Assembly: GCA_965221955.1 (NCBI GenBank)
Contig: CBDCTA010000029.1
Span: forward strand, 192,001-256,000
From: Gammaproteobacteria bacterium
GTDB lineage: Bacteria; Pseudomonadota; Gammaproteobacteria; UBA4575
Length of the DNA stretch: 64,000 nucleotides
Direction: 5' to 3'
Shown here: in pieces, positions 25,497 to 27,797 of the stretch
How the letters are laid out: each line of letters begins with the position of its first letter
Position numbering within the stretch: position 1 is the stretch's first letter
The notes under the pieces: model-generated
Seen by the model: only the letters and a program-made list of their open reading frames with translations
The model's database searches: none
What the model was told of the DNA's origin: nothing
Position numbers and translations under genes: made by a program

Positions 25497-26141
25497 CTAG
25501 AGACCTTGCATAAGCACAGGTAAATTTCTTGCTTGGCCAATCATCAGTTCTAAAGATCTTGGGTCGGGCACTTCTTTTACACGTTTTTGTTCATCATTGG
25601 AACTCAATAAATTATTATATAGAGTGTTTGTGTCTTGTTGACCTAAGTCTTGTACAGAATCAATACCTGCATATACCATTAATTCAGCAAACTGACCTTC
25701 AATTCCACTGACTCGCATCAAGTCACACATACTTGCCCATTTGCTCACTACGAAGTCTTCGATGCCAATGTGGTTGGCAACCTCTATACGGCCATCCATT
25801 TGACAACACTTCTGCAATAGTTGTTGGGTCGTGGCAATGCCTTTATCACGAAGCTTGTTACCGTAACTTTTTCCTATACCTTCTACTTCTTCTATTTCAT
25901 AGCTAGTCTGTTCAGCTTTAGAAATCAATCCTGCTGCGGTGCCCGCGGCGATAGGCTTGTTTACTTCAGCAAGCTTTGTGGAATATTCCTGATCTTGTTC
26001 ATCTAATTTCTTTTTCCAGCTTGCATCGAGATCATCAAGTTTTGTGCAGCATGAACTTTTTGCTAGCCACCATCCGAAAACCGCACCTAGCAAAGCTGCA
26101 AGTAATAAACATAGCCACATTTGTTGAATTAAATAGCTCAT
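25497..26141 (-). CDS. Membrane-anchored DUF4332-like (HhH) protein
   Basis: N-terminal TM; IEEVEGIG, DLMRVSGI..QFAELM..AGIDSV. Confidence 0.8.
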   Translation of the reverse strand: MSYLIQQMWLCLLLAALLGAVFGWWLAKSSCCTKLDDLDASWKKKLDEQDQEYSTKLAEVNKPIAAGTAAGLISKAEQTSYEIEEVEGIGKSYGNKLRDKGIATTQQLLQKCCQMDGRIEVANHIGIEDFVVSKWASMCDLMRVSGIEGQFAELMVYAGIDSVQDLGQQDTNTLYNNLLSSNDEQKRVKEVPDPRSLELMIGQARNLPVLMQGL

Positions 26142-26143
26142 TG

Positions 26144-26896
26144 TTAAAGCCCCTCTACATTAAATTCTATTCTTCTGTTTTTTGCTTTACCTGCATCGGT
26201 TTCATTATCCGCTATTGGCTTGGTTTCACCGTAACCTATAGCAGATAAGCGACTTGCTTCAACGCCGTTGTTGATCAAATGGTCCATTACGGCAGTAGCA
26301 CGTGCTTGACTTAATAGTAAGTTGTAGTCATCGTCGCCGCTAGCATCGGTATGCCCTCTAATCTCAATTTTTGCTTCAGAGCACTGATTGGCAATATCGG
26401 TTAAATCGTTTAATAAAGCATGACTTGACGGGTCAATATCAGCACTATTCGTTGCAAAATTAATTTTATTTAGATTTAGTAAAACATCAAAGTCTTGCTG
26501 ACAAGTATATTCAGGGAGAGGCTCTAGCTTAGGTTTTAGAATTTCTGCGTCTATTTCTTTTTTTGCAGTATCTGTATCAGAGACAGGTTCTAATTCTGTA
26601 ACAGGTTCTTCTATAGAGGCGATAGTAAGTTGATTGTCTACCGTGTGAACACCGTATACTTGTTTGGCGTGTTGTTCTGCCTTTTGTTTGATTTTATCGC
26701 TTGCGACTTCACCCGTGAGGACGATATCACGACCATCCGTTACGATGTCTATATCATCTATGCCTAGTTCAGCAAGGGATGCATGAAGGCGGGTATCGAT
26801 GTCAATTTGAATAATAGTGCTGCGCTCATAGATGCAAAAATAGCCAAGGATAGCGAGCAATAATAAACCTAGTAATACAATCAAGGCTTTATTCAT
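26144..26896 (-). CDS. BON + OmpA C-terminal domain protein
   Basis: GRDIVLTG...GVHTVDNQL (BON); GHTD...N..LS.ARA, GYGE..P, NRRIEF. Confidence 0.9.
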   Translation of the reverse strand: MNKALIVLLGLLLLAILGYFCIYERSTIIQIDIDTRLHASLAELGIDDIDIVTDGRDIVLTGEVASDKIKQKAEQHAKQVYGVHTVDNQLTIASIEEPVTELEPVSDTDTAKKEIDAEILKPKLEPLPEYTCQQDFDVLLNLNKINFATNSADIDPSSHALLNDLTDIANQCSEAKIEIRGHTDASGDDDYNLLLSQARATAVMDHLINNGVEASRLSAIGYGETKPIADNETDAGKAKNRRIEFNVEGL

Positions 26897-27002
26897 TAGA
26901 ACTCTCCATCACGTTATTTTTAGTCTTGTTTTGTAATGAAACACTGCTGAGGAATGCTAAAAAACTGGTATGTTTCGAAAAACTAAATCCAGGCTAACGC
27001 AT

Positions 27003-27269
27003 TCATAATTTGTTTGCAATCATAAAATATTGCTTAAGCTTAGAGGAAGTATTTGAGCAAAATTGTAAATGCACATGAGAACCTTCTCCAAAGCATACTG
27101 TTGCAAATATGTTTTGGGGAAGCCACTCTTTTTTCATTTTTACTTTTTCTAAACGCCGTTTAGATTTATTACTTTTACGATGTATACCACCTTTGCGGAG
27201 TAAAGGATGATTGTGTAAAAGATTTCTTTGCCGAGTCAATTTAGTCGGAAACTTGATTTTATTCGACAT
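27003..27269 (-). CDS. Small highly basic protein, candidate alternative ribosome-rescue factor
   Basis: GGAG SD before the ATG at 27269; RNLLHNHPLLRKGGIHRKSNKSKRRLEKVKMKKEW; internal hairpin at 27083-27122. Confidence 0.6.
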   Translation of the reverse strand: MSNKIKFPTKLTRQRNLLHNHPLLRKGGIHRKSNKSKRRLEKVKMKKEWLPQNIFATVCFGEGSHVHLQFCSNTSSKLKQYFMIANKL

Positions 27270-27329
27270 TATATTCTCCATAATTAGATTAATATTCCAT
27301 AAAGGAAGTACTGAGTTATCAATACTCCC

Positions 27330-27560
27330 TTATGCCGCTTCTTTCACGAGTGTTCCATCATGAATTGCTTGTTGAATGTGCTTCATGAAATACAGTGAAT
27401 TTTTCTCTGCAAATAACACCTCATCCTGCATTGTATTAACAGGTACTGGAAAGCTATATAACTTTTCACTGTATGGCACGGACACAGCGTAGTACGCAAT
27501 ACCTTTTCGGTAGCGTAAAAATTTTGCCTTACTGTTTAGTAATTTGTTTTGAATATTCAT
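27330..27560 (-). CDS. Small hypothetical protein (paralog of 27582-27797)
   Basis: F..YRKG..YY...FPVP...LFAE..LYFMKHI; ends -EAA; AGGTGG SD. Confidence 0.75.
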   Translation of the reverse strand: MNIQNKLLNSKAKFLRYRKGIAYYAVSVPYSEKLYSFPVPVNTMQDEVLFAEKNSLYFMKHIQQAIHDGTLVKEAA

Positions 27561-27581: not shown

Positions 27582-27797
27582 TTACGCAGCTTTGGCTTTA
27601 TCCAATTTTTCTACATGCGCTTTGATGTAAGGGTAAAAACGATTCACACGATCTTCATTTAAGAAAACCGACTGACCTGAGCCTTTAATTGGCACAGGAA
27701 ACTTAAAACCACTTTCAGTGCGGTACCATAATTTCCCTGATAGGAAAAACATGAAGCGTACATTTTCATTATCTTGCAGAATTTGTTCTAGATTCAT
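27582..27797 (-). CDS. Small hypothetical protein
   Basis: VRF.FF.SG.LWYRTESGFKFPVPI...VFLNED...F..YI; ends -KAA; GGAGG SD. Confidence 0.78.
   Translation of the reverse strand: MNLEQILQDNENVRFMFFLSGKLWYRTESGFKFPVPIKGSGQSVFLNEDRVNRFYPYIKAHVEKLDKAKAA

Follow-up and report, generated by a model that had tools for sequence, protein, structure and literature searches.

The small gene on the minus strand at positions 27003..27269 raises the question of what is made from a reading frame that encodes a short basic protein and then runs straight into an RNA hairpin. Ribosome rescue is essential, and in gamma- and beta-proteobacteria ArfA (YhdL, Pfam PF03889) is known to provide an alternative rescue route that depends on RF2. 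A sequence-only reading of the locus had taken the gene for an analogous rescue factor. All coordinates given here refer to the window, that is, to the whole stretch of 64,000 nucleotides of gammaproteobacterial DNA that was analysed.

The small gene and its relatives

Counted to its distal stop codon, the open reading frame has 88 codons and encodes a small basic protein of 88 aa (MSNKIKF...ANKL). The start at position 27269 is considered correct, because a Shine-Dalgarno sequence GGAG (27276..27279, minus strand) is located 6 nt ahead of this ATG and because the homologues, when aligned with it, begin there behind an AGGAG at matching spacing. These two observations render the alternative start at 27281, which would give a protein of 92 aa, unlikely, and both the 88-codon frame and the start that had been assigned in the sequence-only reading are thus retained. 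Residues 1-49 (..RNLLHNHPLLRKGGIHRKSNKSKRRLEKVKMKKEW; 27123..27269, minus strand) form a basic domain with 17 K/R versus 2 D/E, in line with the strongly basic N-terminus described before, and are proposed to be the active protein. The codons past the hairpin (27003..27076, minus strand) form a tail that varies in length and sequence among the homologues and overlaps the promoter of the next gene. A functional product is probably made from this tail rarely, if at all.

In the following, the 88-aa window protein together with its homologues is referred to as the new family. At E<=5e-12 it was detected in each of the 14 remaining genomes of the genus as well as in five further genera of the taxonomic family. 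Of the 41 genomes sampled from the taxonomic family, 17 gave a match in a profile search, representing 7 of 11 genera. In an even sample of the class it was found in 28 of 301 genomes, and Pfam ArfA in 3 of 300; the 300-genome samples include G319, G165 and G063 as non-holders only. The scan of species-representative genomes delivered 41 loci of the new family, among them loci from MAGs labelled Thiotrichales, Chromatiales, Candidatus Thiodiazotropha and Competibacteraceae, and likewise Thiohalomonas, Methylococcales, Nevskiales and Acidihalobacter. In a representative library, 1174 clusters matched with a threshold of E<=1e-3 and 222 with one of E<=1e-10, and nearly all cluster representatives have a length of 45-118 aa with the domain in N-terminal position. 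The family follows the consensus RNxLHxHPLLxKGGxHxKSxKxxRRxxKxxLxKEW, after which the protein conservation between clades ends; distant members show the form RNPVARSPLLRKGGxH and carry acidic tails.

Among 207 database homologues, every source name seen was 'hypothetical protein' and no precomputed Pfam domain was assigned. Neither Pfam nor NCBIfam gave a match for the window protein or for the distant members, the family profile detected no PDB chain at E<=10, and the look-up of the small protein in a protein atlas led to 'hypothetical' clusters only. Judged by these sequence comparisons, the new family is uncatalogued and not a known one. In the article texts searched, no description of the family or of an rtcB-linked ArfA-like gene was found; some members may be listed in the supplements of the ArfT papers, namely the ArfT-family lists of PMC6514570 and, in PMC6299226, Table S2 and Fig. 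S4, which would affect the novelty. Some members have full-length ends that read ..RAAA, ..SAAA, ..TLAA or ..ALAA. The dipeptide -AA is the commonest C-terminal one in the family (11/262, with about 0.6% expected from composition); such ssrA-like ends are a minority trait.

The in-frame hairpin and selection by region

The hairpin core consists of two arms at 27108-27122 and 27083-27097, enclosing a loop at 27098-27107 (minus strand), with 13 of 15 positions paired. These arms were found exactly as they had been drawn before (27083-27122), and the stem can be extended to 19 pairs between 27077 and 27128 (minus strand). Folded alone, the window hairpin reaches -19 kcal/mol (z = -2.55), a stability attained by 4 of 200 shuffled sequences, so that by folding energy alone it is only modestly beyond chance; it also ranks among the weakest of its relatives. 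It is the comparative sequence data that make this predicted element solid.

After dropping identical loci, 69 unique loci of the new family were kept, 47 of which carry the core motif H/N-x-H/N-PLL (L010 was missed by the pattern). For 46 of the 47 core relatives, the onset of the best local hairpin lies 25-29 codons past the H of HxHPLL. All 47 core hairpins have at least 17 pairs, 45 of them reach -15 kcal/mol or lower, and the medians are 25 pairs and -33.2 kcal/mol (n=47). The stem sequences are unrelated between clades and the pairing is retained. For the hairpin alignment 45 of the 47 loci were used; L021, which is divergent after the W, and L061, in which the frame ends earlier, were left out. 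RNAalifold predicted 21 pairs for these 45 hairpins, 20 of which are accompanied by compensatory changes on both sides. Paired cells amount to 90.2% versus 70.2% in shuffles and double-changed cells to 215 versus 63.5, each unequalled in 500 shuffles, a figure which is not to be read as a probability because the hairpin sequences are related. In a control that keeps this relatedness, namely slid registers, 41-55% of the cells were paired.

The position of the stop codon differs among the 47 core loci. It is located past the hairpin in 29 cases, in the 3' arm in ten, in the loop in six, in the 5' arm in one and before the hairpin in one; in 17 loci it thus falls within the hairpin itself. At two loci with the stop codon in the loop (L008 and L018), the 3' arm behind the stop is still conserved and must therefore be under selection as RNA only.

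An intrinsic terminator as the truncating device was considered for the core clade and rejected, since none of the 47 core hairpins is followed by a terminator T-run (at least 6 T within the 8 nt past the outermost stem). There is no T-run after the window's stem either, and a terminator scan of the window found none. T-runs within or after an inner stem were observed for L052, L043 and L081, where a terminator role may apply. Some of the distant members with acidic tails (L084, L088, L097 and L098) show GC stems with T-runs in frame, which, inspected without a control, are only suggestive of stems or terminators in this group.

To compare the selection acting on the different regions, we analysed 16 sequences from the family clade to which the window belongs, leaving out L008 and L018 with their stop codons in the loop and L010, which had escaped the pattern. 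For the N-domain we obtained a pS of 0.67 and a pN/pS of 0.26, meaning that synonymous sites are saturated and residues 1-49 are under purifying selection. In the hairpin codons the synonymous sites are constrained, too: pS is 0.30 for the whole hairpin (pN/pS 0.57) and drops to 0.17 in the 5' arm (pN/pS 0.86). For the seven codons past the hairpin, pN/pS rises to 0.90. From these regional values we conclude that the N-domain is constrained as protein and the hairpin as RNA, and that the tail is free. A chance open reading frame is rejected by the pN/pS values and by the breadth of the homologues.

The check proposed along with the sequence-only reading, namely that conservation should end at the hairpin and that the hairpin should covary, was run by means of the alignments, RNAalifold and pN/pS and had a positive outcome. 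The opposite pattern, a conserved tail in homologues devoid of the hairpin, was not observed. The tail had been called random-looking, and this description fits its unconserved sequence and length and its pN/pS.

Gene neighbourhood and rescue equipment of the host

Two unannotated small genes are located upstream of the window gene on the same strand. S71 (27582..27797, minus strand) encodes a highly conserved protein of 71 aa ending in -KAA, and S76 (27330..27560, minus strand) encodes its 76-aa paralogue ending in -EAA; both share an FPVP motif. S71 precedes the new-family gene in 21 of 69 loci, the window clade included, and S76 is present in 14 of those. The identity of S71 across the clade is 75-89%. 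Its AF2 model is poor (pLDDT 61), and the protein-atlas look-up gave no usable match for it. An end in -AA, similar to the end of the ssrA tag, was observed for 18 of 21 S71 and 10 of 14 S76 homologues (..KAKAA, ..KEAA). Judging from these ends, S71 and S76 may be ClpXP-labile, which would fit their appearance under saturation of the tagging system.

A different neighbourhood is found in other lineages. In 16 of the 69 unique loci, belonging to several GTDB families, rtcB is located directly upstream on the same strand, and the eight upstream genes tested matched Pfam RtcB with E values of about 1e-125 to 1e-130. An orphan gene for a protein of about 315 aa, X315, stands in the same row in 14 of 69 loci (e.g. 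L041:276-1220 and L092:511-1464). The order is X315-rtcB-gene in nine loci, rtcB-X315-gene in one, and X315-gene in four with short flanks. X315 has no match in Pfam or NCBIfam and shows the motifs QTSRPGxNLVLRLNF, RETLAWxRxD and EExQSDWxR. Its AF2 model is confident (pLDDT 86.6); Foldseek found no match at E<=1e-3, and a wide structural search returned almost only GNAT acyltransferases (Z 7.5-9.3, residues about 84-315), so that a GNAT fold is a lead of moderate strength at the level of the predicted fold. At one distant locus (L097:1793-2482, minus strand) a RES-domain gene and an rtcB remnant are located upstream of the small gene. The host genome, 96.6% complete, contains neither rtcB nor X315, and the link to rtcB is therefore inapplicable to the window locus.

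Downstream of the hairpin and overlapping the tail codons, most clade members share a conserved sigma-70-like promoter (TTGCAA-17 nt-TAGCCT, 26991-27019, minus strand). It is located about 100 nt ahead of an OmpA/BON-domain gene (26144-26896, minus strand). Behind this gene follows that of a DUF4332 / helix-hairpin-helix protein (25497-26141, minus strand), which has a membrane segment at its N-terminus. A leader peptide or attenuator for the OmpA/BON gene was considered and rejected, because this gene has its own conserved promoter past the hairpin and because the downstream gene varies between clades.

The host genome (2.69 Mb) encodes tmRNA, SmpB and RNase III. Only two genes with an RF-1 domain were detected, those of RF1 and RF2; there is no ArfA and no third RF-1-domain gene, hence no ArfB. 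The same holds for the taxonomic family, in which ArfA and a third RF-1-domain gene were each found in 0 of 41 genomes; an ArfA harvest in another order yielded 3 of 41 genomes. Within the taxonomic family, 4 of 11 genera have none of ArfA, ArfB and the new-family gene. In the class and family samples no complementary distribution with ArfB or ArfA was found, where ArfA, at 3/300, is too rare for a distribution test. A third RF-1-domain gene (ArfB- or PrfH-like) is also present in 12 of the 28 class-sample holders, which, like the four genera with none of the three, speaks against a simple replacement. Two genomes of one genus were observed to differ in their factor: G135 (L075) has Pfam ArfA only and G314 (L091) the new family only. 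Here, one factor may have replaced the other.

Proposed function and comparison with known rescue factors

We consider it rather probable, at roughly 60%, that the new-family gene encodes a sequence-unrelated analogue of ArfA, which would act in dependence on a release factor and be produced from truncated, stop-less mRNA only when trans-translation is overloaded. Gene design and comparative genomics support the proposal of an analogous rescue factor made in the sequence-only reading, and the function is inferred from them. In this mechanism, the mRNA folds in silico into its long stem directly past codon 49 (19 bp here, a median of 25 bp in the relatives, with covariation). The stem is proposed as an RNase III site, as suggested by its length, the lack of a T-run and the analogy with E. 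coli arfA, and cleavage would leave most messages stop-less. Ribosomes would then stall at the end of the message. As long as tmRNA-SmpB is working, the product of about 50-60 aa would be tagged and degraded; once trans-translation is saturated, the untagged truncated protein would accumulate. Its basic tail (KGGxHxKSxKxxRR..K.KKEW) might enter the mRNA channel left vacant in non-stop ribosomes, and RF2 or RF1 might be recruited for peptide release by the conserved segment RNxLHxHPLL at the N-terminus.

The strongest competitor keeps the gating by the hairpin unchanged and assigns another activity to the protein. Instead of recruiting a release factor, the protein could bind ribosomes or RNA under stress, gated by tmRNA, for example as a factor of the hibernation type or as a helper by which damaged ribosomes or tRNAs are marked or retained for repair by RtcB. 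The conserved neighbours rtcB (16/69 loci) and the orphan GNAT-fold protein (14/69) would suit such a role, as would the lack of similarity to the RF2-binding part of ArfA and the co-occurrence of ArfB-like genes in 12/28 genomes. However, the window genome and its family keep the gene without rtcB, and they do so without any other known back-up rescue factor. Moreover, among the systems known to us, non-stop gating has been reported only for rescue factors. The regulation of ArfA and BrfA as described in PMC11633108 agrees with gating limited to this group. We regard a stress protein of this kind as unlikely.

Still less probable is true homology with ArfA after strong divergence. The family would then belong to an ArfA superfamily instead of having arisen independently, and it would work by the mechanism set out above. 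By eye, ..LVAQPLFR.. of ArfA resembles ..NPVARSPLLRK.. and ..LLHNHPLLRK.. of the family, ArfA and the family each have a W at the hairpin or directly ahead of it (..NWEAS.. in ArfA, ..KKEW.. in the family), and both occur in Gammaproteobacteria with the same gene design. The profile tests speak against such a descent. PF03889 did not match the window protein at E<=1, found 0/20 and 0/67 members at E<=10 and gave no match at the 27003-27269 locus in a scan of the whole host genome. An hhalign comparison of 67 N-domains with 17 ArfA sequences yielded a probability of 0.3% and an E value of 0.18, for an ArfA set that is mostly of the Pseudomonas type, so that this comparison is not exhaustive. 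As a control, the ArfA profile recovered E. coli ArfA in the PDB at 3.5e-11, whereas the family profile found no chain there at E<=10. The motif KGKGSY, invariant in the 17 aligned ArfA sequences, is absent from all aligned members of the new family, which agrees with the missing KGKGS motif pointed out for the window protein before. We regard it as very improbable, finally, that an ordinary full-length basic protein is made, with the hairpin serving as an element of mRNA stabilisation or decay control or as a leaky terminator, and with no stop-less translation involved. Hairpins at gene ends are common, and in 20 of the 29 core loci with the stop past the hairpin it follows within 1-24 nt; with a stop so soon after the hairpin, read-through products could be short and harmless. 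Against this stand the fixed distance of the in-frame hairpin from the motif across clades with unrelated stems, the stops inside loop or arms in 17/47 loci, the neutral evolution of a tail of 0 to more than 50 codons, and the lack of a terminator T-run after the stem in all 47 loci.

The rtcB context in other lineages suggests that ribosome rescue could be coupled to RNA repair after RNA-cleaving damage. Extending the ArfA-analogue reading, one may speculate, with considerable doubt, that the new family represents an independent and widespread third kind of RF-dependent rescue factor within larger stress modules gated by tmRNA-ClpXP, as in the S71/S76 operon and in the operon with RtcB and the GNAT-fold protein. 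For the lineage of the window, this would mean that S71, S76 and the rescue factor do not build up unless tagging and ClpXP degradation are saturated. Elsewhere, the gene would form the rescue arm of a PrfH-independent operon with RtcB and the GNAT-fold protein, answering RNA-cleaving toxins.

According to PMC11633108, ArfA is the least widespread back-up factor and ArfB is present in 58% of the surveyed genomes. From this reported distribution it follows that many Gammaproteobacteria are without a known RF-dependent back-up, a gap which the new family would fill in part if the ArfA-analogue reading is true. The non-stop-mRNA switch would then have been invented or kept repeatedly, and a fresh protein would be at hand for studying how release factors can be activated in the absence of a stop codon. 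In the relatives, the linkage to rtcB would connect RNA repair with the rescue of stop-less ribosomes independently of PrfH.

Since no homology to any proven rescue factor is detectable, the function proposed for the new family rests on analogy, and ArfA is among the nearest models. Both are small basic proteins of the same bacterial class with a conserved part of about 50 aa and an unconserved tail, and in both a hairpin or terminator is located in the reading frame behind the conserved part, as was also seen in ArfA loci fetched here with the Pfam model (a 13-bp in-frame hairpin in L073 and L104, an in-frame terminator in L075). The mature form of ArfA is described as 52-55 aa with its basic tail in the mRNA channel, and the size and charge of the new family match this description (PMC6299226). 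ssrA-like ends occur on both sides, ..LLAA in ArfA and ..RAAA or ..TLAA in some members of the new family. ArfA of the Pseudomonas type (L073:1483-1638, L104, P0123-P0240) was observed to end in ..WEAS(V/L)LLAA, encoded in the gene itself, with a 13-bp hairpin that spans the REAS..WEAS codons. The differences concern the motifs, KGKGSY in ArfA and RNxLHxHPLL-KGGxH-K[ST] in the new family, and the stems, which have a median of 25 pairs in the new family and 13-17 in the ArfA loci examined. A further difference is the frequent linkage of the new family to rtcB.

In a different phylum, Bacillus subtilis has BrfA (YqkK), which is likewise RF2-dependent and made from non-stop mRNA. Its logic and the one proposed here are alike in that the message of a small protein loses its stop codon and trans-translation represses the product (PMC11633108, PMC6881298). 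ArfT of Francisella tularensis has 40 aa, works with RF1 or RF2, is small and basic like the new family, and was also missed in homology searches with ArfA. ArfT has been assigned to a broadly distributed family with repeated charged helices (PMC6514570). We take this family to be the KGG repeat family; Pfam KGG (PF10685) matched 0/67 members of the new family at E<=10, whose sequences may be compared with the ..ASKGGKAAHQKG.. of true KGG proteins. The ArfT motif KKGGSTNKK loosely resembles KGGxHxK[ST]NK of the new family, this motif being the only basis of the comparison, and the regulation of ArfT is described as unlike that of ArfA (PMC6299226). The likenesses to ArfA and ArfT motifs seen by eye may thus serve as leads, unsupported by the profile tests.

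A further comparison is offered by PrfH. It is homologous to release factors and has a hydrolase domain; the new-family protein is without an RF-1 domain. In the PrfH-RtcB2 module a rescue gene is located beside rtcB, as is the new-family gene in 16 of 69 loci, and this module provides a precedent for the pairing of RtcB with a rescue factor (PMC9304027, PMC6514570).
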